DNA of 64,000 nt from Myxococcota bacterium (GTDB lineage Bacteria; Myxococcota_A; UBA9042; DTJE01), in NCBI GenBank assembly GCA_017994695.1, contig JAGOKF010000002.1:21643-85642 (forward strand), given 5' to 3'. Position 1 is the first letter of the stretch; each line of letters starts with the position of its first letter. Shown piece by piece: positions 22,074 to 60,027 of this stretch. Made by a program: the position numbers and the translations under genes. Below the pieces are notes generated by a model. The model was not told the DNA's origin. It did not search any database and worked only from the letters and a program-made list of their open reading frames with translations.

Positions 22074-22618
22074 TCGAGACCACCCTGAAGGAACTGGAGA
22101 CCGCGTTCCACAAGGCCATCGAGAACTTCGAGAAGGAACTCTCGAGGGTCCGGACCGGACGGGCCAACCTGGCCCTGCTGGACGGGATTCGGGTCGAGTA
22201 CTACGGGGTCCCGACCCCCCTCTCCCAGGTGGCGGCCCTGACGGTTCCCGATCCGCGGCTGATCCTGATCCGGCCCTGGGACAAGAAGCTGATCGCGTCC
22301 ATCGAGAAGGCCATCGCCGCCGCGGACCTGGGTCTCAATCCCCAGAACGACGGCGACGTCATCCGGCTGGCCATCCCCGCCCTGACGACCGAGCGGCGGC
22401 GGGAACTGGTGAAGCAGGTGAAGCGGCTGACCGAGGAGGCGAAGGTGTCGGTGCGGAACCTTCGCCGGGATGCCCGCTCCCGGCTGGAGAAGGCCGACGG
22501 CCTGCCCGAGGACGACGTCAAGAAGGCCCTGGAGCGCATCGACCGGGAGACCGACAAGACGGTCAAGCAGGCCGAGGACATCTCCGCCAGGAAAGAAAAA
22601 GAGATCATGGAGTTCTAG
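22070..22618 (+). CDS. frr: Ribosome recycling factor
   Basis: MIETTLKELETAFHKAIENFEKELSRVRTGRANLALLDGIRVEYYG. Confidence 0.94.
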   Translation: MIETTLKELETAFHKAIENFEKELSRVRTGRANLALLDGIRVEYYGVPTPLSQVAALTVPDPRLILIRPWDKKLIASIEKAIAAADLGLNPQNDGDVIRLAIPALTTERRRELVKQVKRLTEEAKVSVRNLRRDARSRLEKADGLPEDDVKKALERIDRETDKTVKQAEDISARKEKEIMEF

Positions 22619-22627
22619 TCCGTCGCC

Positions 22628-22647
22628 CCCTGCCTGCCCGCAGGGGT
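22628..22647 (+). terminator. Possible intrinsic terminator after frr (7-bp GC stem cccctgc/gcagggg with a 6-nt loop, followed by tt)
   Basis: The hairpin was paired by hand. Its U-tract is weak. Confidence 0.25.
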
Positions 22648-22724
22648 TCCCGGCAGCCGGCGCGATGGACCGGAGTCGGGCTTCCGGACTATACTGCCTC
22701 CGTCTTGCCATCCGGGGAGGGGCC

Positions 22725-24740
22725 ATGGGCCGGTATCCGGTTCGGCATCTGGTCCTCGCGTCGGTGCTCTCGGCAGCGTGGTGCGCCTGCTCCCAGAAGC
22801 CTCCGCCGGAGGCCCGGGACGACTTCACGCTCGACGCGGCTCTCCCGGCCCTGGTCCCATTGCAACTGGACGAGTTCTTCCTGGGCAACCTCGCCGCGCT
22901 GGCGGACCGGGTGCCCCGGCGGCCCGAACTGGCCGAGGCCTACGGGCGGTTCGCCCTGGGAGGACTCGCCGCGGCGATGATCGACCAGCATACCGCGCTG
23001 CCCCGCCTGCTGGGGGCCGATCCCCGGGAGCCGTCGGCCGTTCCCCGCTTCCTTCGCCAGGTCGCCCAGAAGGTCGCCGGGGCCACCCCGGACCTCGCCG
23101 GGGCGACGGAGGCCCTCGCCGCGGCCTGGGGCACCGAGGGGGACGTCTCCCCGGCCCTGGCCTTCGCGAAGGGGTCCCACCCGGCCGCGCCGGCCTTCCG
23201 GGCCCTCCTGGCGGCCCGGCTGCTGGCGGCCCTGGGAGGCGTGGCGGACTCCCCGGAAGGGGAGCGGGGCCTGGCCTTCCAGCAGGCCTTCCCGACCCTC
23301 CCCACCGCCCCCACGAACGACATCACCCGGACGGCCTTCCCCGCAGGGCTGGCCCTGCTGTCGGACCTGCTGAAGGCCGGGGCCGGGCCGGAACAGGGCC
23401 TGGGCCGGATCTTCGCGACCCTGCGGCAGCAGGCGGACGATCGCCTGGGGAACCGGGTGTTCCCCCTTCCGCTGCCCTCTGGACAGGCTGCCCGGCCCGG
23501 GGCGGTCCAGGCCGGACTCCCGGGACCCTATACCCCGCTGCTGCTGTGGGTCGTCTCCCCCGACGGGGCTTCCGCGGGGTTCCGGCCGGCCATTCGGTGG
23601 AGTCCCGAAGGGCCGTCACAGGCCTTGCCGCCGGAGGACGCGGCGTCCCGGGCCCGGTTCCCGGCCGAGGCCCTGGGCGCCCGGTCCCTCCAGGTCTCCC
23701 CGGAGGCTCGGGAGGCCTTCCAGGCCCTGGCCCGGGCCTCCGCCGAACTGGAACCCATGGCCTGGCCGAACCAGGCCGGCATCGGCATCCTCTCTGGCGA
23801 GCGGGGGGACCGGGGACTCCCGGTCCTGGTGGACCTGCGAGGGGATCCCCCGGCGAGGATCCTCCAGGGGGCCCTGGCGGTGCTGTCCCAGGCGGGCTTC
23901 ACGGACCTGCGGTTCGCGGCGCCTGGCACCGTCGGACGCAGCCTGGCCTTCTTCCACCGGAAGCCCCCTTCCCTGCCGGGCATCGCCGCCCTGGCGGGAC
24001 CCCGGGTGCTGGTGCTGGTGGGGTCCTCCTCGGCGAAGGTCTTCGGCCCGCCGGGGGCCCAGAAGGTCTCCCGGGAGGGTTGGCCCGAGGGAGTCCAGGC
24101 GGGTTCCGCGGGCCAGGGTCCCCTGCGGGTCGAGGTGCCCTGGAGCCGCGAGGAGGGATTCCGGGGACGGCTGGCCCAGGTCGTGGGCCTGTGGAGGGAA
24201 CGGACCCGGGCCGGGGTCCCCGTGGACGTCCTGGCGGCCTCGATGGATCTCCCCGCCCTGGCGATGCTGGACGCCGCCCAGGAGGTCTTCGCCTCCCCGG
24301 GTCCGCCCTTCGGGGACCTGGGAACCTGGTTCCCGGGCCTGTCCTGCGCCCAGGGTGGCGCCTGCCCGGCGGCCATCCCGGTGATCTTCAGCGATGCGAA
24401 GCCCCCGAAGGAGAAGGTCCAGGTCACGGTCACCGAAACCCGTCCCGCGGGGTTCTGCGATCCCCAGGCGGTCCAGCGGACGATCCTGGGCCGGTCCGGC
24501 GCCTACCGGGCCTGCTACGAACAGGAACTGCAGCGCTACGGCCGGCTGGAGGGACGGCTGGAACTGCGCTTCACCATCGAGCCCGACGGGAGCGTGTCGG
24601 GCATCACGGTGGTCCAGAACGAACTGAACCGCACCGTCGAGGCCTGCGTGATCCGCCAGGTCAGCCAGTTGAAGTTTCCGAAACCGGACGGGGGGGTCTG
24701 CGTGATCCGGTGGCCCTTCCGCTTCCAGCCCGGAGGGTGA
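22725..24740 (+). CDS. Lipoprotein with an AgmX/PglI-type (TonB-C-like) C-terminal domain
   Basis: It has a signal peptide plus Cys (MGRYPVRHLVLASVLSAAWCAC). The C-terminus 'YRACYEQELQRYGRLEGRLELRFTIEPDGSVSGITVV...VEACVIRQVSQLKFPKPDGGVCVIRWPFRFQ' matches the myxobacterial AgmX/PglI C-terminal domain pattern. Confidence 0.6.
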   Translation: MGRYPVRHLVLASVLSAAWCACSQKPPPEARDDFTLDAALPALVPLQLDEFFLGNLAALADRVPRRPELAEAYGRFALGGLAAAMIDQHTALPRLLGADPREPSAVPRFLRQVAQKVAGATPDLAGATEALAAAWGTEGDVSPALAFAKGSHPAAPAFRALLAARLLAALGGVADSPEGERGLAFQQAFPTLPTAPTNDITRTAFPAGLALLSDLLKAGAGPEQGLGRIFATLRQQADDRLGNRVFPLPLPSGQAARPGAVQAGLPGPYTPLLLWVVSPDGASAGFRPAIRWSPEGPSQALPPEDAASRARFPAEALGARSLQVSPEAREAFQALARASAELEPMAWPNQAGIGILSGERGDRGLPVLVDLRGDPPARILQGALAVLSQAGFTDLRFAAPGTVGRSLAFFHRKPPSLPGIAALAGPRVLVLVGSSSAKVFGPPGAQKVSREGWPEGVQAGSAGQGPLRVEVPWSREEGFRGRLAQVVGLWRERTRAGVPVDVLAASMDLPALAMLDAAQEVFASPGPPFGDLGTWFPGLSCAQGGACPAAIPVIFSDAKPPKEKVQVTVTETRPAGFCDPQAVQRTILGRSGAYRACYEQELQRYGRLEGRLELRFTIEPDGSVSGITVVQNELNRTVEACVIRQVSQLKFPKPDGGVCVIRWPFRFQPGG

Positions 24741-33854: not shown

Positions 33855-34253
33855 TCAGAACTTCTTCACCTGGATGTGGATGGTCTGGTCCGCCGTGGTC
33901 TCCTCCAGGGCCAGCGTGTATCCCCGCTTCTCCAGTTCCTGCTTCACCTTCCGGTGGGTGTACTTCTGGGTCACGAGGCGCACGAAGGCCTGCTCGTCGA
34001 GCCCCCGGGTGGTCTCGACCCCCCACCAGTCGGCGATGAACTGGACCCCCTGGGGACCCACTCGAACGCCCACGTCGTAGGTCTTGCTGACGTGGATCAC
34101 CAGGTCCGCCTCGGTGGTCTGTTTCTGGTACCCCCGGACCTTCAGCCGCTGGCCCTCGGTGGCCTCGGTGAACGCGAATCCCAGGTCGTGGAGGGCCTGC
34201 TTCAGCGTCACGAGGTCGTGGATCTTCGTCTGGACAGTGGTGAAATGGGACAT
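33855..34253 (-). CDS. DUF1257 (Ycf35-like) family protein
   Basis: The DUF1257-like N-terminus is MSHFTTVQTKIHDLVTLKQALHDLGF... Confidence 0.65.
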   Translation of the reverse strand: MSHFTTVQTKIHDLVTLKQALHDLGFAFTEATEGQRLKVRGYQKQTTEADLVIHVSKTYDVGVRVGPQGVQFIADWWGVETTRGLDEQAFVRLVTQKYTHRKVKQELEKRGYTLALEETTADQTIHIQVKKF

Positions 34254-34262
34254 GATCTTCCC

Positions 34263-35824
<1,562 letters not shown>

Positions 35825-35828
<4 letters not shown>

Positions 35829-37711
35829 CCGCCCTCCCGTCCCGCTCCGCCCTCCGCGAGGTCCGCGTCATCGAGGGACTGGCGCAGCACCTGCACGTCC
35901 TTGGCCAGCATGCGCTGCAGGTTCCGCAGCGAGGCGTGGAGTTCCCCGGCGTCCTGGCCCCCGAGGGCCCGCCGGAGGCGATCCGGCCACTCCGCCGGAT
36001 CGGCCCCCAGGGCCTCGATCACCGGCAGGACTTCCCGGATCGTCCCCTGGAGCACCAGCAGGTCCTCCTCCAGGGACTCCACCTGGGCCACGAGCCCCCG
36101 AAGGGCCGGCGAGGCCCCGGCACCGCCCGCCTCCGATCCGCCCTCCGCGGCCTTCCGCTGATCCAGTTCCCGCTGGAGTTCCTCCACCCGCAACGTCAGG
36201 GTCCGCACCTTCTCCGCCGCGGCGGCTCCCTCGGCGGCCACCTGGGCCTGGGTCTCGGTCCCCGCCGCCAGGTCCCGGCGCACCGCGTCCAGGGCCTGGC
36301 TCATGCCCGACACCTTCTCCCGCAGCGCCTCCAGTTCCCGCATCGCCGCCCGGTAGTCCGGGTGGTCCGAGATGTCCTCCTTCTCCAGCCGCCGGACCCG
36401 GGCGGCCTCCTCCAGTTCCCGGAGCCGCGCTTCCAGGTCGTCCCGCTCGGCCCGGATCGCCGCCAGTTCCGCGGCCCCTTCGGCCTGCATGGCCCGCAAC
36501 TCGTCCACCTCGCGGCTCTTCCGGTGGTAGTCGTCCAGCAGCCGCTGCTTCTCCTGCTCCAGATCCGCGATGCCGACGCCCAGGCGGACCTCCCGGATCT
36601 CCCGCTCCTTCCGCTCCAGGTCCCGGCGCATCGACGCCATCAGGTTGCGGTTCTCCTCGATCACCGCCTCCAGGTTCCGCAGTTTCCGCTCCAGGTCCCT
36701 CTGGCGCCCGGCGTCCCCCTTCACGTACTCTTCCAGCCGCTGGGACTCCTCCCGGAGCACCCGGAGGTCGTATTCCCTGCCGTCCAGTTCGCGGCGCAGC
36801 CGCTCGATCTCCCGGTCCTTCTCCGTCAGTCGGACCTTCAGGGACGACATCTCCTCGGAGTTCTGGGTCGTCCGACCCCGGACCGCCTCCAGCTGGGCGC
36901 CCAGGGCCGCCACCTTCTCCCGGAGGTCCGCGGCTTCGGCCTCCCGGTTGGAGAGGTCCGCCCGGGCACCGTCCAGGAGCCCCTGGAGGTGGATGTTCTG
37001 GTCCCGGACGTCCTGGCTCTTCCGGAGAATGCCGTCCATCGCCGCCGCGGCGCTGGCCGCTCGGGACTCGGCGTTCTCGACCCGGCGCTCCGCATCGCCC
37101 AGGAGGCCCTTCAGGTGCCGGACCTCCTCCTCCAGTTCCCGGATCCGGTCCGCCCCCGGTTTCGCGGGGGCCTTCCTCTCGGCCCGGAGGGCCTCGTTCT
37201 CGGCCCGGAGCCGCTGCAACTCCGCCAGCAGCGCCGGGTCCACCCGCAGGCCCGGGTCCAGAATCGGTCGCGGACCGGTCGGCCTCCGGGGGGACTCGTC
37301 CAGCCGCACGGAGGGAACCGGGGACTCCACCCTCTGCGCGACGTCCCGGTCCTCGATGGTGCCGTCCTCGGGAACCCGGATCTCGCGGCTTCCCCGGCCC
37401 GTCCCCCCAGCAGGAGACCTCTCCCGGAAGACCGCCTCGACCTCGCCGAACCGGATCCGGTCCCCGTCCCGGAGCAGCCGCGGCCCGGCCACCGGCTGGT
37501 CGTTGATGCGGCACGGGTTGGTGGAACTCCGGTGGAGGTACTCCCACCCCTCGGGAGTCTTCCGGATACGGCCGTGATCCCGGCTCACCGAGGGGTCTGC
37601 CACCACGATGTGGCAGGTGGGACTCCGACCGACGATGGCCCCTCCCGGAACCTCGGGAATCTCCCTCCGCTGGGGCTTTCCGGAGGCGTCCCTGAATTCG
37701 ATGCTCGCCAT
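35825..37711 (-). CDS. FHA-domain protein with a ~500-aa coiled-coil (SMC-like) region
   Basis: Start at MASIEFRDASGK (cat at 37709-37711). FHA core 'IVGRSPTCHIVVADPSVSRDHGRI'. The remainder is heptad-rich (LRAENEALRAER...). Its stop overlaps the AAA+ gene start by 4 nt. Confidence 0.75.
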
Positions 37712-44263: not shown

Positions 44264-46291
44264 TCAGGTCCGGCCCCGGAGGAACGCCTCGACCATCAAC
44301 AGCAGCAACGCCCCCAGCAGCACCGGTGTCACCAGGGACTTCCGGCTCTTCCGGGGCACCGGGGCACCCGTCCCGGGTCGGATCGTCCCCCGGGATGCAT
44401 CGGCGGACAGCCCCGGCCCGAACAGGCTCTCCCGGGGATCGGGCTGCACAACGAAGATATCCCGGAGGCGGGGCGCGCTCCGCCCGTCCCCCCTCGCATG
44501 GACGGCATAGACTCCCGGCTGGTCCGTGCCGGCAAAGACCCCCGGAGGCCCGACCGCCACGACGGTCCCGGAGGGCACCGTGACCCGCAGATCCGGCTCG
44601 CCCTCGGGCCAGCGAAGGGGCCTGGCCTCCCCGGGCCTCGTCGGTTCGGCCTCCGATCCCCCGGACGAGCGGGCAGCCCATTCCAGCGTCTCCCGGAGGA
44701 AGGACACGAAGGCGGGGGACAGGGGCAGATCGTTCCAGGAGGGGTCCAGGCTCGAAAGCCACAGGATGACCCGCCCCTCCCCCAGGGACCCCGCCAGCCA
44801 GAGGGGAAGGCCGGGGCCCACCGAGGCCAGCCGCCGCCATCCCTCGGGCCATCCGGCCTCGGGCAGCGCCACCTGGCGGACCCGGACCTCCCGGATTCGG
44901 GCGGCCACCGACTCGTCCAGGAAATCCGTCCCGGCCTCGATCACCGGCTGCCCCTCCCCCGAGGCCGCATCCAGCAACCGGATGCGCCGCAGGGTTCCCG
45001 GCACCAGGCCCTTCCAGGCGTCGTTCCAGGCCTCCAGGGGGGTCCCGGGACCGGGAGCCAGCCAGAGGGTGCCCCCGGCCCGGACGTAATCCTGAATCGC
45101 CTGGACCCTTTCGGGGGACAGGGGCCCCGGATCGGCGGCCACCACGGCCGCCACCCCGGCCAGTTGCAGCGGGGAGAATGCCCCGACCGGCACACGCCTG
45201 ACCTCCCGAGACCATCCCCCGACGTTCAACCCGAGGGCCCGGCCGACGAAAAAGGCCGGACCCTGCCCCGATGCCGGGCCCTCCAGGACCAGCACCGAGG
45301 CCCGGCTGCCCGCCCCGGCGACGAACCATGCCACGTCGTCGTCCGGCAGGGCATCCGGCGGCAGCCGGACCTCCCCGAACCGGACGTCCTCCGGCAGGTG
45401 GATCCCCACCGACACCGGGCACCGCTGCATCGGCGGGCACTCGACGCGTTCCGCGGTCACCTGGCCGCCGGCCCGGATCGACAGCACCTCGTCCAGGGAC
45501 CGGGAGGTCCCGTTCCACACCTCGGCCTGGACCCGGAAGGCCCCCGATCCCGCCTCGGGGTCCGGCAGCGCCCGGACCTCCAGGATGGCGCGGTTCTCGC
45601 CCGGTTCCCCCCCGGTCACGTCGTCCCGGAGCAGGTGGATCCCGTCCTGGACCTCCTCGGCGCCCCCCCGGGCATCGGCGTTCCGGAAGTCCGACAGGGC
45701 CAGGATCCGCCGGTCCGGGAGGGGATTCTCCCGGAGCCTCCGCCGGGCCGTCGCCAAGGCGGCCGCCAGGTCTCCCGCCTTCCAGGTGGCGGCCATCCGC
45801 TCGACCCGGAACACCGCCTGCACCGGCTCCAGTCCCGGTCCCCGCCGGGGCTCGACCTCCCGGGGTCTGCTGGTGCGGACCAGGAAGACCCTGGATCCCT
45901 CGGGAAGTTCCCCCAGAGCCTGGAGGGCCCGCTGCCGCGCTTCCTCGAAGTCCGACCGTTCCCGGGACTTCCACCGCATCGAGAGGCTGTCGTCGATCAC
46001 CAGGGCCAGCGCCAGGGGCCGCTCCCCGGCCAGGCCGGACGACGGCACCTCCCGGTAGGGGCGGGCGAAGGCCACCGCCACCAGGATCAGCAGCAGCACC
46101 CGGCTTGCCAGCAGCGCATGGTGCATCCACCGCACCCGGAGGGCCGTGCCCGACACCCCCAGGACCAGGCGCATCAGGGCTTCCAGGGGGACGACCGGGG
46201 CCTGCCGCCGGAGCCACAGGTGCAGCCACAGCGGCAGCAGCGCCGCCAGCACCCCCGCGAGCATCCAGGGAGAGGCGAAGCCGATGGTCAC
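44264..46291 (-). CDS. BatA-like membrane protein with a VWA domain (aerotolerance-operon type)
   Basis: The GTG at 46291 overlaps the DUF58 stop. It has N-terminal TM helices, a MIDAS motif 'LALVIDDSLSM', and a C-terminal TM anchor. Confidence 0.7.
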   Translation of the reverse strand: MTIGFASPWMLAGVLAALLPLWLHLWLRRQAPVVPLEALMRLVLGVSGTALRVRWMHHALLASRVLLLILVAVAFARPYREVPSSGLAGERPLALALVIDDSLSMRWKSRERSDFEEARQRALQALGELPEGSRVFLVRTSRPREVEPRRGPGLEPVQAVFRVERMAATWKAGDLAAALATARRRLRENPLPDRRILALSDFRNADARGGAEEVQDGIHLLRDDVTGGEPGENRAILEVRALPDPEAGSGAFRVQAEVWNGTSRSLDEVLSIRAGGQVTAERVECPPMQRCPVSVGIHLPEDVRFGEVRLPPDALPDDDVAWFVAGAGSRASVLVLEGPASGQGPAFFVGRALGLNVGGWSREVRRVPVGAFSPLQLAGVAAVVAADPGPLSPERVQAIQDYVRAGGTLWLAPGPGTPLEAWNDAWKGLVPGTLRRIRLLDAASGEGQPVIEAGTDFLDESVAARIREVRVRQVALPEAGWPEGWRRLASVGPGLPLWLAGSLGEGRVILWLSSLDPSWNDLPLSPAFVSFLRETLEWAARSSGGSEAEPTRPGEARPLRWPEGEPDLRVTVPSGTVVAVGPPGVFAGTDQPGVYAVHARGDGRSAPRLRDIFVVQPDPRESLFGPGLSADASRGTIRPGTGAPVPRKSRKSLVTPVLLGALLLLMVEAFLRGRT

Positions 46292-47247
46292 GGGACCCTC
46301 CTGGAGGAGGGATCCCGGGACCTGCCGACCGGTTCGCGGTCCGCGCCGTCGCCGGTTCCCGGCACCCGGGACTGGATCACCTCCAGGGCCTCCTTCCAGG
46401 CAGCGCGGGCCATCGGGACCGGGAGGTACCGGATGCGCGCCTCGTGGCAGTCCCGCTGCCAGCCGGCCAGGAAGGCCTGCATCGCCTGCAGGTAGGCCCG
46501 CCGCAGGGACCGTGCGTCCATCAGGGCCGTTCCCCGGGTCTCGGGGCTCTGGAAGACCGCCGTCCCCTGCCACGGGAAGGTCCGCTCCTCGGGGGTCAGG
46601 ACGTGGAGCAGGTGCACCGCATGTCCCCGGGAGGCCAGGGTCCGCAGGGAATCCATCACGGGTTCCCGGGGGGTCAGCAGGTCGCTGGCAACCGCCACGA
46701 TCCCCCTCCGCCGGGCCCGGACGACCACCTCCCGGAGGGCCGGGACCAGGTCGGTCCCTCCGCCGGGCCGGGTCCCGATCCACAGGGAGTTCAGGTCCCT
46801 CCAATGGGAAGGCACGGACCGCGGGGGCAGGTGGGCCAGCCGTCCCTCGGAGCAGACCGTCGCCGCCACCTCGTCCCCCTGCTGGAGCAGCACCCAGGCC
46901 AGGGCCGCCAGGAGACCCGCCCCGTGGCGGTATTTCGAAACGCCCCCGGGGGCCTCCCCCATGCTCCCGGAGGCATCGAGGACCAGCCAGGCCGAGAGGT
47001 TCGTCTCGTCGAGGTAGCGCCGGACGTAGGCCCGGTCGGTCCGGGCCAGCACCTTCCAGTCCAGGTGCCGCAGGTCGTCCCCGAAAGCGTAGGGTTTCAG
47101 GTCGCTGAACTCACGGCTCTGGCCCAGGTGGGACGCCAGGTGGACCCCGCTCCGGATCCCCCCGGCGACCATCCTCGGGCGGAAGACGACCCCGGCCAGG
47201 GCCTGGCGGGCCTCCTCCCCCAGCAGGACCTCCGGCAACCGGGGCAT
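46288..47247 (-). CDS. DUF58-domain protein
   Basis: 'SREFSDLKPYAFGDDLRHLDWKVLARTDRAYVRRY' is the canonical DUF58 core. Confidence 0.8.
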   Translation of the reverse strand: MPRLPEVLLGEEARQALAGVVFRPRMVAGGIRSGVHLASHLGQSREFSDLKPYAFGDDLRHLDWKVLARTDRAYVRRYLDETNLSAWLVLDASGSMGEAPGGVSKYRHGAGLLAALAWVLLQQGDEVAATVCSEGRLAHLPPRSVPSHWRDLNSLWIGTRPGGGTDLVPALREVVVRARRRGIVAVASDLLTPREPVMDSLRTLASRGHAVHLLHVLTPEERTFPWQGTAVFQSPETRGTALMDARSLRRAYLQAMQAFLAGWQRDCHEARIRYLPVPMARAAWKEALEVIQSRVPGTGDGADREPVGRSRDPSSRRVP

Positions 47248-47251
47248 CGTC

Positions 47252-48169
47252 CTACTCCCGGAGCACCAGCGACTGCACGACGTCCAGCCCCGATACGCGA
47301 TCCGCCTCGCCGTGGAAGTTCACCACGACCCGGTGGGCCAGGACCGGCACCGCCAGGTCCCGGACGTGGTCCGGGGTCACCGTGAACTCCCCCTGCAGGA
47401 TGGCCCATGCCTTGGCCGCCAGGACCAGGTGCTGGGCGGCCCGGGGGCCGGCCCCCCAGGCCACGTAGTCCCGCACCTCCCGGGTCGCCGTCGGGTCCTG
47501 GGGGCGGGTCTTGCGGACCAGCGCCACCGCCTCCCGCAGGACGTAGTCCGGCGTCGGCATCCGCCGGACCAGGTCCTGGAGCGACAGGACCTCCCGGGGT
47601 CCCATCACCTTCTCCAGCGTCCCCTCCGACAGGCCGGTGGTCTCCTGGACCACCCGCACCTCCTCCTCCGGACTCGGATATTCCACCCGCACGACCAGCA
47701 GGAAGCGGTCCAGCTGGGCCTCGGGCAGCGGGTAGGTCCCCTCCTGCTCGATGGGGTTCTGGGTCGCGAAGACCACGAAGGGCTCCGGGAGGGGATGGAC
47801 CTCCCCCGCCACGGTCACCTGGTGCTCCTGCATGGCCTCCAGCAGCGCCGACTGGGTCTTCGGGGGGGTCCGGTTCACCTCGTCGGCCAGCAGCAGGTTG
47901 GCGAAGACCGGTCCCCGGGCGAACCGGAAGGCCCGCTGGCCGGTCCCCCGGTCCTCCTCCAGGACCTCGGTTCCGGTGATGTCCGAGGGCATCAGGTCCG
48001 GCGTGAACTGCACCCGGCGGAACGACAGGTCCAGGCAGTGGGCCATCACCTTCACCATCGTCGTCTTGGCCAGCCCGGGCACCCCGATCAGCAGGCCGTG
48101 TCCGCCGGCCATCAGGGCCGTCATCAGCAGTTCCAGCGCCCGCTGCTGCCCCACGATCCGGCGGCTCAT
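47252..48169 (-). CDS. MoxR-family AAA+ ATPase
   Basis: Start [15 protein letters not shown] (cat at 48167-48169); '[15 protein letters not shown]'; '[23 protein letters not shown]'. The rest of track ORF 47252..48673 is an upstream wrong-frame extension. Confidence 0.88.
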
Positions 48170-48257
48170 CTGCCCCGCCAGTCGTTCCCAGGCCTCCCGG
48201 GCCTGCCGCACCCGTTCCTCGTCCCGAAGCCACTCCTCCCGCGGGTCCGCCAAGATG

Positions 48258-49784
48258 CTACCTCCCCCTCTCCAGAAGACGCTCCTCCCGCTCGGCCAGG
48301 TCCCTGCGCCCGGCGGACCGGAAGGCCGCCGCCAGCGCCCGGTGCGACTCCGGGTCCCAGGGATCGGTCCGGACGAAGGCCAGCAGCGGATCCACCGCAT
48401 CCAGCCACCGCCCGGCGGCTGCCAGGGCGAGCCCCCGCTCCCGGGACAGCCAGGGAAGTTGCTCCTCGTCCAGGGCCGCCCGGTCCAGCACCTCGAGAGC
48501 CTCCCCGGGCCGCCCCCCCTGTCGAAGCGCTCGGGCCAGCCGCCCGACCACCTCGGGATGGGGATCGGACATCTCCGCCAGGATCTCCCGCAGCAGCGTC
48601 GCCGCATGGAGGGACCGGCCGTTCCCGGCCAGGCGGTCCGCCAGGCGGACCCGGGATTCCACCTCGGGAGCAAGGTCCGGCATCGCCTCCCCGACCCCCT
48701 CCCGCATCACCACGACGGGCCTGGGGCCCCCCTCCTGCGGGACCTCGGTCGTCCGTTCCTGGAGGAAGGCCTGAAACCACTCCCCGGGGCGGACGCCGAC
48801 GACGCGCAGGAACGCGACCTCCGCGTCGCCGCCACGCATCTCGGCCACCAGCCGGGCCACCGCGTCGTCGCCCTTCTGGTGGGTCGTCCAGGCGATGAAG
48901 GCCGCCAGTTCGGCGAAGGCCAGTTGCACCGCCTCGGAACCTCCCAGCGACAGCAGCCCCTCCTCGATGCGGTCCAAGGGGATCCACCGGCGCTGGAGGG
49001 TGGCGGTGTCCAGCAGGCGGCCGGCCGTGCGGCCCACCTCCCCGACCGGGCGTCCCCTCCAGGATCGCTCCCAGGCCTTGGCCACCCCTTCCTGGAACCA
49101 GACCGGGATCCTCCCTCCCCCCCGGACGGTCAGCAGGAAGTGGACGATCTCGTGGGCCAGGGTGTCCGCGTAGGGATAGCCCCAGGGCAGCGCGTCGGGC
49201 GTCACCATCACGATCCGCCGAAGGTCGCAGACGGCCACGGCGCCCGCCGCGTCGAGCCTCGACCGTTCCAGGCCCGTCACCCGGGCCATCTCCTCGAAGG
49301 ACGGAACCAGCCAGACCGGGATCGCCTCCTGGAAGTCCCCCGGGCCTCCCAGCCGGTCCAGGAACAGGTCCAGGGCCTCATCCCCCGCCTCGAACAGGTA
49401 CGGCAGCATCGCCTCCGCGGTCCCCGGGGGATGGAGCACCCGGATCCGCTGCTTCGGCGAGGACGCCTCCACCAGGCCCGCCGCCACCTCCCGACTGCCC
49501 CGGACCACCGGGAGCAGCGACCGGGCCAGGGGATCCCGGCTCCGGGACAGGAAATGGTCCGCCGACTCCAGGTCCCCTTCCAGCAGTTTCAGGGTCCCCC
49601 ACCAGAGCAGGGACTCCCGCCCCGACGGCCCGGTCATCAGCACCCGTCGCATCGCCGGGAGGTCCCAGGCCTGGAAGGCGGCCTGCAGGACCGTCTCCCG
49701 GACCGGGTGGGGAGCCCCGAGGCCCGCCGGCGTCCCCAGCAGGACCCCCAGCATCGGCAGGATTGTCCGGTGCACTCTCCCCAT
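48258..49784 (-). CDS. Secreted HExxH (zincin-like) protein with a TPR-like C-terminus
   Basis: Start [25 protein letters not shown] (signal peptide). '[14 protein letters not shown]' HExxH motif. It is the first gene of the MoxR operon. Confidence 0.6.
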
Positions 49785-49874
49785 GGTCGGCACTCTGCCG
49801 AATCCCCGCCGGGAACGCAAGACCGGTTCCGGTCGAGTATAATGACTGCGTCGCCTCTCGAGGGAGGACCAAGG

Positions 49875-50516
49875 ATGCAGCCATCGGGACGGGGAGGGAA
49901 GCGCCCCCGGTCCCGGCGCAAGGCCGGGGCCAGCCTCGAGGATCGCCTGGTCGATCGCTACCTGGAGGCAGGCACCCTGGCCCTGCAGGACGACCGGCCG
50001 GAGAGGCTCGACCCGACGATCCGCCGGGAGATGGAAACCCTGACGGGTGCCGACCTGTCGGACGTCCGGGTCCACACGGGCAGCGGAGCCCGGCGCATGG
50101 CCCAGGTCCTCGGTGCCAGGGCCTTCGCGCTGGAGGGCGGGGACGTGTTTTTGCCCCGGGAGCACTTCGACCCGGCTTCCTCGGAGGGGAAGGCCCTGCT
50201 CGCCCACGAACTGACCCACGTCGCCGAGGGCCAGAGCGGCCTCTCCCGGGTCCCCCGGCGGCCCGTCCGGGAGGAGATGGAGCAGCGGGCCCGGCGAGCC
50301 GAGGAGTTTGTCCTCGCCCAGGAGGATGCCCAACGGACGCCCCCGGCGACCGAGGAGGCCGTCGATCCCGAGCGGGTGCGCCTCCCCGGCCAGGGGGAGG
50401 AGGCCGGGTCCGCCGAGGGACGGGTCGTCCTGGTGGACAAGGACGCCCTGGAACAGAAGGTCTGGGATCGCCTGGAACGGGAGACGCGCCGCCACCGGGA
50501 TCGGCTGGGATCCTAG
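49875..50516 (+). CDS. Stand-alone DUF4157 (zincin-like HExxH) domain protein
   Basis: 'TGADLSDVRVHTGSGARRMAQVLGARAFALEGGDVFLPREHFDPASSEGKALLAHELTHVAEGQ' matches the DUF4157 core, including HExxH. Confidence 0.65.
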   Translation: MQPSGRGGKRPRSRRKAGASLEDRLVDRYLEAGTLALQDDRPERLDPTIRREMETLTGADLSDVRVHTGSGARRMAQVLGARAFALEGGDVFLPREHFDPASSEGKALLAHELTHVAEGQSGLSRVPRRPVREEMEQRARRAEEFVLAQEDAQRTPPATEEAVDPERVRLPGQGEEAGSAEGRVVLVDKDALEQKVWDRLERETRRHRDRLGS

Positions 50517-56799: not shown

Positions 56800-56875
56800 A
56801 CGATCGGCCGGCGGTCGCCGGCTCCCGGTTGCCCGACGACCTGCGCTATGCTCCGCGGCCGAAGGGAGGTGCCTC

Positions 56876-58636
56876 GTGGAAGAACAGGTCCAGGGTTCGC
56901 GCTTCGGGGACCGGGAGTTCTACGCCGCGCTGGGGCTCCGGTGCGGGATCGAGATGCACCGGCAACTGCACACGGACCACAAGCTCTTCTGCCGCTGTCC
57001 CGTGCGCCCCTACTCCCAGGAGTTCCACGCCGAGATCCTGCGGCACATGCGCCCGACCCTCTCGGAACTCGGGGAGTACGACCCGACGGCCCTGATGGAG
57101 TTCAAGACCCGCAAGGAGATCGTCTATCGCCTGAACCGGGAGACGGTCTGCACCTACGAGATGGACGACGCGCCCCCCTTCGGCCTCAACCGGGACGCCC
57201 TCCATCGCGGGCTGGTGATCGCCCGGATGCTGAACCTGAACCTGGTGGACGAGGTCCACATCGCCCGGAAGCAGTACCTGGACGGGTCGATCCCCACGGG
57301 CTTCCAGCGCACCTGCATCCTCGGGGTCAACGGGTGGATCCGGGTCGAGGGACGCCGGATCGGCATCCGGCAACTGGGACTGGAGGAGGACGCCTGCCGG
57401 GAGGTGTCGGACCACGGGCACCGACGCACCTACCTGACGGACCGCCTCAGCATCCCCCTGATCGAGATCGTCACGGAAGCCGAGATGCACACCCCCGAGG
57501 AGGCCTTCCAGGTGGGGTCGGCGATCCGCCGCATCTGCCACCTGTCGGGCCAGGTCCGCACGGGCCACGGCCGGGCCCGCCAGGACGTCAACGTCAGCAT
57601 CCGGGGCGGGGACCGGGTGGAGATCAAGGGGGTCTCGACGCTGCGGCTGATCCCGGCGCTCGTGCACTACGAGGCCCTGCGCCAGAAGGCCCTGCTGGAC
57701 CTCCGGGACGCCCTGGTGGCCCGGGGGGTCGTCCCGGCGGACTTCGGCGAGGACCGCGACGTCACGGCCCTGGCCCGGCGCTTCACCCATCCGGCCCTGC
57801 GGGGGCCCTGGACCGGGGGCGTCGTCGCCCGGGCGATCCTGCTCCGGAAGTGCAGCGGCTTCCTGTCGCGTCCCCTGGCCCCGGGGCGCACCTTCGCCAG
57901 CGAGATCTCGGACCGGGTCCGGGTGATCGCCTGCCTGGACCGGATGCCCAACATCGCCCACTCCGACGACCCGGAGGCCTTCTCCCTGAGCCCCCTCTTC
58001 GACCAGGTGCGCCAGGCCTTCGAGGGCGGCGCCCCCGACGCCGTGGTGATCGTCGCCGGGCCGTCCCAGGACGTCCAGACCGCCATCGGGGAGGTCCGCC
58101 TCCGGATGGCCGAGGCCTTGGTCGGCGTGCCCCGGGAGACCCGGAAGTCCCTGCCCGACGGCACGACCTGCTTCGAGCGGATGCTCCCGGGCCCCGACCG
58201 GATGTACCCCGACACCGACCTGCCCCCCATCGTGCTCCACGACGAGGACCACCAGCGGGCCCGGGAGGCGACCCCCGAACCCCTGTGGGACAAGGAGGAC
58301 CGGTGGATCGGGATGGGGGTCTCCCGGGAGCAGGCCTACCGGCTGCTGACCGAGGACGCTTGGCCGGTCTTCGAGGCACTGGCGGGCCGGGTGCCCGTGC
58401 GCCCGTCGGTGCTGGCTTGGCTGCTGCTGGACTGGATCCCCGGCCTGCGGCGCCGGGGCGCCTCGACCGACCTCCTGACCCCCGACCGCATCCGGGAGGT
58501 CCTGTCGGCCTCCGGGGGCGAAGCCCCGATGGACCAGAAGGACGCGGCGGCCCTGGTGGGCATCGCCGCGGGCCGGCCGCCCTTCTTCCTGCAGAAGCCC
58601 AATCCCCGCAAGGGCCAACGGGAGCCAACGCGATGA
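56876..58636 (+). CDS. gatE: Glu-tRNA(Gln) amidotransferase subunit E (archaeal GatDE type)
   Basis: The GatB/E-family N-terminus is 'LGLRCGIEMHRQLHTDHKLFCRCP'. 'RQDVNVSIRGGDRVEIKGVSTLRLIP' is present. At 586 aa it exceeds GatB length, and it is followed by a gatD-like gene. Confidence 0.75.
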   Translation: MEEQVQGSRFGDREFYAALGLRCGIEMHRQLHTDHKLFCRCPVRPYSQEFHAEILRHMRPTLSELGEYDPTALMEFKTRKEIVYRLNRETVCTYEMDDAPPFGLNRDALHRGLVIARMLNLNLVDEVHIARKQYLDGSIPTGFQRTCILGVNGWIRVEGRRIGIRQLGLEEDACREVSDHGHRRTYLTDRLSIPLIEIVTEAEMHTPEEAFQVGSAIRRICHLSGQVRTGHGRARQDVNVSIRGGDRVEIKGVSTLRLIPALVHYEALRQKALLDLRDALVARGVVPADFGEDRDVTALARRFTHPALRGPWTGGVVARAILLRKCSGFLSRPLAPGRTFASEISDRVRVIACLDRMPNIAHSDDPEAFSLSPLFDQVRQAFEGGAPDAVVIVAGPSQDVQTAIGEVRLRMAEALVGVPRETRKSLPDGTTCFERMLPGPDRMYPDTDLPPIVLHDEDHQRAREATPEPLWDKEDRWIGMGVSREQAYRLLTEDAWPVFEALAGRVPVRPSVLAWLLLDWIPGLRRRGASTDLLTPDRIREVLSASGGEAPMDQKDAAALVGIAAGRPPFFLQKPNPRKGQREPTR

Positions 58637-60027
58637 GTCAGCCCGCCACCGATCGGTTCAAGGGATACCGGGGCGTCGGACGCGAGGTGCTCGAGCGCCT
58701 GGGCATCCAGGTCTGGGAGGACGTGGAGATCCGCACCGTCCGGGGCATCTACCGGGGGATCCTGCTGCCCCGGAGCGAGACCGCCGACGACCGGCACCTG
58801 GTGCTGAAACTGGAGACCGGCTACAACATCGGGGTGGCCGCCGGGGACGTCGTCGGGGCCACCTCCCACGGACGCCGGGAGGCCCACTACCAGATCCCGG
58901 AAAAGGAGTTCCCCTTCGACCCCGGCAAGCCCCGGGTGAAACTGCTGGGAACCGGGGGCACGATCGCCTCCCGGCTGGACTACCGCACCGGCGCCGTGAT
59001 CCCCGCCTTCAGTCCCGGGGAACTCTACGGCTCCGTCCCCGAACTGGCGGAAATCTGCAACATCGAAACGGAGAAACTCTACGCCGTCTTTTCGGAAAAC
59101 ATGGGCCCCGAGCAGTACATCGGCCTGGCCCGGGCGGTGGCGCGGGAGATCGAGCGGGGCGTGGACGGCATCGTGATCGGCCACGGCACCGACACGATGC
59201 ACCACACCGCGGCGATCCTGTCCTTCATGGTCCAGAACCCGCCCATCCCCATCGTGATGGTGGGCAGCCAGCGCAGCAGCGATCGCCCCTCCTCCGACGC
59301 CGCCCTGAACCTGATGCACGCGGCCCGCACCGCCGGGCACAGCGACATCGCCGAGGTGATGGTCTGCATGTTCGGACCCACCTCGGACCAGTACGGCCTG
59401 CTGCACCGGGGCACCCGGGTCCGCAAGATGCATTCGTCCTTCCGGTCCACCTTCCGGACGATCGGGGACATCCCGGTGGCGATGGTGTCCCGGGACCAGG
59501 TGACGCCCCTGCGGTCCGACTACCGGCGCCGGGACCCGAACCGCAAGTGCGTGCTGGACGCGGTGTACGACAACCGGGCGACCATCCTCTACTACTACCC
59601 CGGCATGAAGCCGGACCTGATCGAGGCGCTGGTGGACAAGGGCTATCGGGGCATCGTGATCGCCGGCACGGGCCTCGGCCACGTCAACAAGCCCCTCTAT
59701 CCCGCCATCCGGAAGGCCGTGGACCAGGGCGTCCACTTCTTCATGACCGTCCAGACCCTCTGGGGCTACACCCAGATGTACGTCTACGACACGGGGCGGG
59801 ACCTGATGGAACTGGGGATCGTGCCCTGCGCGAACATGCTCCCGGAGGTCGCCTTCATGAAGTTGTGCTGGGCCCTGGCCCACAGCGACGACCGGGAGGA
59901 GGTGAAGCGGATCATGCTGACGCCGGTGGCGAACGAGATCACCGAGCGGGAGCCCCCGGACGCCTACCTGATCTACCAGGGAGGCCTCCCGGAGGTGGAG
60001 GCCTTCGTGAAGTCCCACCGGATGTGA
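58633..60027 (+). CDS. gatD: Glu-tRNA(Gln) amidotransferase subunit D (asparaginase-like, archaeal GatDE type)
   Basis: A GatD-specific N-terminal domain ('HLVLKLETGYNIGV') precedes the type-I asparaginase core ('LLGTGGTIAS', 'GIVIGHGTDTM'). The ATG overlaps the gatE stop. Confidence 0.75.
   Translation: MSQPATDRFKGYRGVGREVLERLGIQVWEDVEIRTVRGIYRGILLPRSETADDRHLVLKLETGYNIGVAAGDVVGATSHGRREAHYQIPEKEFPFDPGKPRVKLLGTGGTIASRLDYRTGAVIPAFSPGELYGSVPELAEICNIETEKLYAVFSENMGPEQYIGLARAVAREIERGVDGIVIGHGTDTMHHTAAILSFMVQNPPIPIVMVGSQRSSDRPSSDAALNLMHAARTAGHSDIAEVMVCMFGPTSDQYGLLHRGTRVRKMHSSFRSTFRTIGDIPVAMVSRDQVTPLRSDYRRRDPNRKCVLDAVYDNRATILYYYPGMKPDLIEALVDKGYRGIVIAGTGLGHVNKPLYPAIRKAVDQGVHFFMTVQTLWGYTQMYVYDTGRDLMELGIVPCANMLPEVAFMKLCWALAHSDDREEVKRIMLTPVANEITEREPPDAYLIYQGGLPEVEAFVKSHRM

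Follow-up and report, generated by a model that had tools for sequence, protein, structure and literature searches.

The 64,000-nucleotide stretch of contig JAGOKF010000002.1 analysed here (Myxococcota bacterium; hereafter the window) carries two adjoining genes, gatE and gatD. The pair probably represents a bacterial-type GatDE, i.e., a heterodimeric tRNA-dependent amidotransferase of archaeal descent, which has been inherited vertically in this lineage and whose GatE subunit has lost its C-terminal YqeY-like tail. GatDE has been stated to be exclusive to archaea (PMC2811023, 2009; PMC9499178, 2022), which is also how an earlier note on this DNA, made from the sequence alone, had summarized established knowledge. 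The two coupled open reading frames (ORFs) with an ATGA overlap which it had described were recovered, and the peptide motifs quoted in it are all present. The gene pair and its start signals are as follows:

56864-56869, plus strand: Shine-Dalgarno-like GGGAGG, 7 nt ahead of the gatE GTG, read from the sequence
56876-58636, plus strand: gatE, 586 amino acids (AA), GTG start, GatE subunit (tRNA-dependent kinase/transamidase), tail-less variant
58620-58624, plus strand: GGGAG ribosome-binding motif for gatD, inside the 3' end of gatE and 9 nt before the ATG, read from the sequence
58633-58636, plus strand: ATGA start/stop overlap of the two genes (gatD ATG at 58633, gatE TGA at 58634-58636), translational coupling
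58633-60027, plus strand: gatD, 464 AA, ATG start, GatD subunit (glutaminase of the asparaginase family)

Family membership and catalytic residues

In the comparison of hidden Markov models (HMMs) proposed in the earlier note, the gatE product exceeded the cut-offs of the NCBIfam equivalog models for GatE, NF003107 (474.9 bits, cut-off 456) and TIGR00134 (408.4 bits, cut-off 319.6), whereas all six GatB models stayed below theirs (at most 136.9 bits against cut-offs of at least 314.8; best-scoring model 136.9 bits, cut-off 338) and matched only residues ~99-280. Due to these sub-cut-off scores, the GatB of GatCAB was rejected as the identity of the gatE product. GatCAB, through which bacteria usually obtain Gln-tRNA(Gln) and Asn-tRNA(Asn), has in GatB a paralogue of GatE that shares its cradle fold and its kinase/transamidase chemistry. 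However, GatB (~475 AA) is without the insertion domain resembling aspartyl-tRNA synthetase (AspRS) which is found in the window GatE. Moreover, GatB partners GatA, a glutaminase of the amidase family, and GatC, whereas the window GatE partners a GatD of the asparaginase family.

The best PDB matches of GatE are the archaeal GatDE crystals of Pyrococcus abyssi (1zq1_C, E = 1e-96) and Methanothermobacter thermautotrophicus (2d6f_C, E = 2e-86). A structure of GatE was modelled with AlphaFold2 (AF2), giving a pLDDT (predicted local distance difference test) of 84 and a pTM (predicted template modelling score) of 0.84. The entries closest to this model in Foldseek are again 2D6F and 1ZQ1, and the best match is 2d6f_D (E = 2.7e-42, template modelling score 0.76, normalized to the target). 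The Pfam domain GatB_N spans residues 22-457 of GatE for 274 profile positions, and a match spread in this way implies a large insertion. The insertion stretch (residues ~280-415) gave a continuous, gap-poor alignment to both 1zq1_C and 2d6f_C, and the GatE model also has weak secondary Foldseek matches to AspRS. Helices were modelled at residues 456-543 with pLDDT > 90. The domains of the two products are located as follows:

57728-58120, plus strand: AspRS-like insertion domain of GatE (AA ~285-415), boundaries approximate, from AF2 secondary structure
58229-58510, plus strand: helical domain of GatE (AA ~452-545), kept, alignment with archaeal GatE reaching to chain residues 521-531
58711-58842, plus strand: GatD N-terminal domain (AA 27-70), Pfam PF18195 with 46.6 bits (cut-off 25.7)
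58933-59916, plus strand: Asparaginase and Asparaginase_C domains of GatD (AA 101-428), PF00710 with 190.2 bits and PF17763 with 109.6 bits

At 82 positions, ≥ 95% of the bacterial-type GatE sequences and the two archaeal structures share the same residue. These positions cover the known cradle motifs and include E26, H28, E126, E170, E171, R235, D237, N239, S241 and K251. At a further 35 positions, the bacterial clade is fixed for residues other than those of the archaeal enzymes. The loop at the first base pair has the length found in GatE, without the 3-10 turn of bacterial GatB.

The gatD product exceeded the cut-offs of the GatD equivalogs NF003217 (496.7 bits, cut-off 310) and TIGR02153 (495.7 bits, cut-off 324), both of which scored higher than the subfamily model TIGR00519 (377.8 bits), which matches as well. 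The fusion of a GatD-type N-terminal domain to a type I asparaginase core, which had been read from the sequence before, is borne out by the Pfam domains listed above. A stand-alone type I L-asparaginase was rejected because of the N-terminal domain, the higher scores of the GatD equivalogs and the coupled gatE. Hence, a GatB next to an ordinary asparaginase, which the earlier note had named as the case that would overturn its reading, is not what was found. The best PDB matches of GatD are 2d6f_A (E = 1e-120) and 1ZQ1 (E = 1e-117). Residues T110, T186, D187 and K265 align with T101, T177, D178 and K254 of M. thermautotrophicus GatD, which we take to be the catalytic numbering of the GatD literature and which agrees with the alignment. 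All four are invariant in the 61 aligned sequences.

Archaeal GatDE (2D6F, 1ZQ1) and the window pair therefore consist of the same two subunits with the same catalytic residues. Both have a GatD N-terminal domain joined to an asparaginase core, a GatE with cradle, AspRS-like insertion and helical domains, and a short basic loop, without the 3-10 turn insertion, before the RQD-N-S motif. In contrast to the archaeal systems, the host of the window pair is bacterial, identity is 36-38% for GatE and 47% for GatD, the YqeY-like tail is absent from GatE, and the order is gatE followed by gatD with overlapping stop and start, an order which the earlier note had called inverted relative to the usual archaeal one.

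Bacterial host, distribution and origin

The same contiguous 64 kb encode bacterial RpoA, L17, SecY, DnaB, Ffh, RseP and DapA, all of which exceed the equivalog cut-offs, as the earlier note had expected in calling the surrounding genes unambiguously bacterial. MutL, DksA, TatC, signal peptidase and TsaB are encoded as well. A large protein (22431-24737, plus strand) carries at its C-terminus an AgmX/PglI (GltG-like) domain, as is typical of gliding-motility proteins of myxobacteria, which backs the placement of the contig in Myxococcota. Judged by this gene content, the contig is unambiguously bacterial and looks like one of Myxococcota. The GC content (~0.70-0.73) is flat across gatE-gatD, and the GC content at third codon positions (GC3) of gatE (0.94) is in line with that of the neighbouring genes. 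Exactly these proteins, with the same neighbours, were recovered from five or more independent assemblies (sources ENA, Logan and JGI plus one NCBI metagenome-assembled genome, MAG); GCA_029562035.1 is a MAG with an identical GatD.

To determine the distribution, species-representative genomes were scanned once with the GatE peptides RHMRPTLSE and LDGSIP[TA]GF, which differ from the matching stretches of both archaeal reference GatE sequences. At least 600 genome matches were obtained; all locus counts given here refer to the best 80 of these. The 80 loci lie nearly all in bacterial MAGs of many phyla, namely Myxococcota, Krumholzibacteriota, Fermentibacteria/Aegiribacteria, Aminicenantes, Phycisphaerae/Planctomycetota, Bacteroidota/Ignavibacteria/Kapabacteria, Cloacimonetes, Marinimicrobia, Calditrichota and Fibrobacteraceae; among them are contigs of several megabases and records with a chromosome title. 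Large records bearing GatDE include CP070718.1, OY820579.1, OY762428.1 and CAWIIQ010000001.1. The GatD of the window is 65-84% and its GatE 47-72% identical to the proteins of these bacteria. Similarly, the 120 best GatE homologues (52-92% identity) have bacterial labels wherever a label is given (Myxococcota, Deltaproteobacteria, Krumholzibacteriota, Elusimicrobiota). Thus, the archaeal-type pair described in the earlier note is real but not isolated.

The order gatE-gatD, which is the norm in the bacterial clade, is found on the same strand in 62 of the 80 loci, with a junction that mostly overlaps or measures a few bases. Full-length bacterial-type GatDE from Krumholzibacteriota, Aminicenantes, Phycisphaerae, Bacteroidota/Ignavibacteria and other Myxococcota belongs to the same clade, has the same operon order and shares with the window GatE the signature peptides RHMRPTLSE and LDGSIPTGF. 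An all-against-all clustering of the ORFs in the 80 loci yielded no recurring neighbours besides gatE and gatD; all other clusters are antisense shadow ORFs or are present in at most eight loci. No gatB paralogue was found in the flanks of the 80 loci. On sequenced plasmids and phages, bacterial-type GatE was not found; the hits were GatB genes and one GatE of an archaeal megaplasmid (36% identity).

In public databases, these bacterial proteins are already annotated automatically as GatE and GatD. No description of a bacterial GatDE was found in the full-text literature searched, which lacks most subscription-journal papers, so that this absence is no proof. Apparently, the bacterial clade is widespread yet undescribed, being visible in databases without being discussed.

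An archaeal fragment that was mis-assembled or mis-binned into a bacterial contig would explain why a system described as archaea-exclusive turns up here, and two of the 80 related loci are indeed labelled Thermoplasmatota. However, the pair is embedded in 64 kb of contiguous bacterial housekeeping genes, GC and GC3 are in line with those of the neighbours, and the ribosome-binding sites are of bacterial style. In addition, the identical locus was recovered in the independent assemblies, synteny is conserved in relatives, and relatives are found on records titled as bacterial chromosomes. Because of the bacterial markers, the matching composition, the independent assemblies and the conserved synteny, contamination or chimerism, against which the earlier note had advised checking, was rejected, and the probability of such an artefact is considered negligible.

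Regarding synteny, relatives with 72% and 64% identity in GatE retain the order RseP-TsaB-gatE-gatD-DapA-HEAT-Ffh, and a 92%-identical relative has the same gene arrangement on JGI contigs of 352-355 kb (Ga0116252_10000023, Ga0116186_1000005). Compared to this 92%-identical relative, dN/dS (ratio of non-synonymous to synonymous substitution rates, Nei-Gojobori) is 0.16 for gatE and 0.05 for gatD. Judging from synteny, composition and substitution rates, the pair is a vertically inherited, ameliorated and long-standing resident of this Myxococcota lineage and is under purifying selection.

For the deeper origin, GatD was searched against cluster representatives at 50% identity, in which the bacterial type falls into few clusters. 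Archaeal GatDs were matched at ≤ 47% identity, those named being from Sigynarchaeota, Nitrososphaerota and Thermococcus; the representative P0127 lies amid archaeal genes for ribosomal proteins, Alba and eIF2. A tree of the asparaginase core of GatD was computed by neighbour-joining, a coarse method, with a single stand-alone asparaginase as root. Bacterial-type GatD and four divergent relatives form a clade (97 of 100 bootstraps), and at least one of the four (P0121) has a bacterial context and the order gatE-gatD. This clade joins an archaeal set including Sigynarchaeota (82 of 100) and is nested among other archaeal GatDs. The nested position favours an old transfer from archaea to bacteria, which would have been followed by spread among bacteria. 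The horizontal acquisition suggested in the earlier note may therefore apply to deep time, as indicated by the GatD tree, but not to the recent past, given the synteny, the host-like composition and the purifying selection in the lineage.

Several related loci deviate from the common arrangement. On two MAG contigs labelled Thermoplasmatota (L040:8382-13318 and L049), a full-length bacterial-type GatE nests inside the bacterial clade, and gatD lies divergently upstream of gatE. On L040, a glutamine synthetase gene lies directly downstream of gatE and the remaining neighbours are not diagnostic for an archaeal or a bacterial contig. At L094:9301-12132, a single protein of 943 AA (P0122) consists of a reduced GatE (AA 14-459, cradle and insertion) fused to GatD. 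Its GatE part is without helical or tail domain, RQDVNVS is changed to RHELSVC and GIEMH to GLDVH. P0122 is a singleton, and the neighbours called on its contig include genes for a Ser/Thr protein kinase-TPR protein, a PIN/TRAM protein and MFS transporters; by its domain composition, the fusion points to further remodelling in the GatDE family. At L093:502-3829, a divergent GatD-like protein (P0123, 51% identity) without a Pfam GatD_N match is encoded next to asnA, the gene of the ammonia-dependent asparagine synthetase.

Some further observations concern the neighbourhood. Upstream in the 92%-identical relative (355-kb contig, L095:6227-7794), an MscS-channel gene was called as two ORFs of 92 and 404 AA, whereas it is intact in the sister contig L096 (522 AA); the split in L095 is a frameshift or a sequencing error. 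In the window, genes for a DUF58 protein, a MoxR-type AAA ATPase and a TPR/BTAD protein (minus strand) lie beside one for a small eCIS_core protein (PF13699, plus strand) at 46288-50516, an arrangement conserved in the 92%-identical relative. At 33855-35867 (minus strand), a DUF1257 protein is encoded directly downstream of a CDC48/FtsH-like AAA ATPase, the latter below every curated cut-off.

The missing YqeY-like tail of GatE

The most unusual feature of the pair, overlooked in the earlier note, is the absence of the GatE tail. The loss of this tail in a Myxococcota subclade is the new element of the finding. At its C-terminus, the window GatE ends as follows:

58511-58633, plus strand: C-terminal stub of GatE (AA 546-586) in place of the YqeY-like tail of ~90-100 residues, GatE profile unmatched past position 531 of 630

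The window GatE covers the GatE profile of 630 positions at positions 6-531 only and has no counterpart of positions 532-630. The length of 586 AA, earlier judged too long for bacterial GatB, is long for GatB but short for GatE. The Pfam domain PF02637 gave no match on the window GatE, and the alignments to both crystal sequences end at chain residues 521-531 of 619-633. After the last aligned position, only 42 unrelated residues follow.

A tail HMM was built from 72 full-length bacterial GatE proteins and detected its positive controls with E = 6.5e-25 and 1.5e-15. The same HMM found nothing in the six-frame translations of the 64-kb window and of three tail-less loci (L011-L013). Since it was negative in every frame with positive controls, the tail is neither frameshifted nor locally split off, and a tail encoded nearby was likewise rejected. 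The stub evolves faster than the remaining gatE (dN/dS 0.30 compared to 0.14).

The short C-terminus is common to P0001-P0047 (546-617 AA) among the 120 closest GatE homologues, whereas the more distant ones of this set (~630-680 AA) retain the tail with its ..LMGxVMxxxRGRxxG.. region. In the full-length bacterial-type GatDE of the uncultured bacteria described above, GatE has ~635-680 AA and includes this region. In the best 80 species genomes, a tail-less GatE is present in three, which are MAGs of Myxococcales/Anaeromyxobacteraceae only. All tail-less sequences form one clade nested within bacterial-type GatE.

[quoted passage not shown] Tail-less GatE reads G-R-A/V-R here, and the majority of full-length bacterial GatE reads G-A-A-R.

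The YqeY-like tail of GatB and GatE touches the tRNA's D-loop and helps to tell tRNA(Gln) from tRNA(Glu); deletion of the GatB tail abolishes tRNA binding, and a motif of the GatE tail is implicated in the rejection of Asp-tRNA(Asn) (PMC2811023, PMC2330236, PMC4810234). The helical domain of archaeal GatE, in turn, binds the T-stem-loop (PMC4810234).

Function and significance

GatDE chemistry is very likely conventional. GatD would hydrolyse glutamine at its asparaginase-type Thr/Thr-Asp/Lys site and hand the ammonia to GatE, which would phosphorylate and then amidate the glutamate on tRNA(Gln), yielding Gln-tRNA(Gln) for translation. Because the YqeY-like tail is lost, tRNA selection would have to depend on the cradle, which would read the first base pair, and on the insertion and helical domains, or else on a partner protein. 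The low dN/dS, the invariant catalytic residues of GatD and the 82 conserved positions of GatE indicate that the enzyme is almost certainly active. Amidation of Glu-tRNA(Gln), the presumed substrate, is the most likely function of the window pair, with tRNA recognition altered and displaced from the elbow.

Three points weigh against this assignment. As tRNA binding by GatB reportedly needs the tail, which is also implicated in D-loop discrimination by GatE, a tail-less GatE might bind tRNA poorly or have an altered specificity. Furthermore, archaeal GatDE reads the first base pair A1-U72, and bacterial tRNA(Gln) is reported with U1-A72 (PMC2330236). Finally, neither tRNA(Gln) nor gltX nor any further gene of translation is linked with gatE-gatD in the window and the 80 loci, from which tRNA(Gln) is absent altogether. 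The sole credible tRNA gene adjacent to gatE in the 80 loci is a tRNA-Glu(CTC) ~200 nt upstream of gatE in an uncultured bacterium (L031:9723-9799).

An altered specificity could take the form of a relaxed amidotransferase which also amidates Asp-tRNA(Asn) and stands in for GatCAB. With the tail absent, a tail-less clade that is conserved under purifying selection, and an extra Arg/Lys being commoner in its basic loop, which adjoins the first-base-pair site, such an enzyme is conceivable, but those GatDE enzymes that have been characterized act specifically on Glu-tRNA(Gln) (PMC2330236), and we regard this explanation as rather unlikely. Alternatively, the pair could be repurposed or partly decayed and act outside translation, for instance by amidating a different acyl-carrier or aminoacyl substrate, or by functioning solely as a glutaminase/asparaginase whose partner is vestigial. 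A repurposed amidotransferase would fit the loss of a domain without which GatB reportedly fails to bind tRNA (PMC2811023), the lack of linked translation genes, and the more extreme relative in which GatE (cradle and insertion) and GatD are a single fusion with altered catalytic motifs. Yet the kinase/transamidase and glutaminase residues are all intact, the helical domain, responsible for T-stem-loop binding in archaeal GatE (PMC4810234), is kept, dN/dS is low in both genes and the coupling of gatE and gatD is preserved. A function outside translation is therefore considered improbable, and a tRNA-dependent GatDE acting on Glu-tRNA(Gln) is preferred.

With a coherent clade of bacterial-type GatDE, present in at least 600 genome matches of which the best 80 spread across many phyla, the statement of reviews and primary papers that GatDE occurs in archaea only is outdated. 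This affects arguments built on it, i.e., the use of GatDE as an archaeal signature, its co-evolution with the A1-U72 pair of archaeal tRNA(Gln), and inferences on the amidotransferases of LUCA, the last universal common ancestor. It also raises the questions of how an enzyme tuned to archaeal tRNA(Gln) handles a bacterial tRNA, and whether GatDE replaces GatCAB or coexists with it. Where an annotation pipeline seeks only gatCAB or glnS, the capacity of these bacteria to make Gln-tRNA(Gln) may be wrongly scored as absent. The Myxococcota lineage does without the GatE tail under purifying selection. Speculatively, this lineage, and perhaps other GatDE bacteria, could perform indirect aminoacylation with a GatDE that is blind to the tRNA elbow and reads U1-A72 by the cradle alone. 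We hold this to be a fairly small possibility; if true, such an elbow-blind GatDE would be a third, undescribed route to amide-aminoacyl-tRNA in bacteria.

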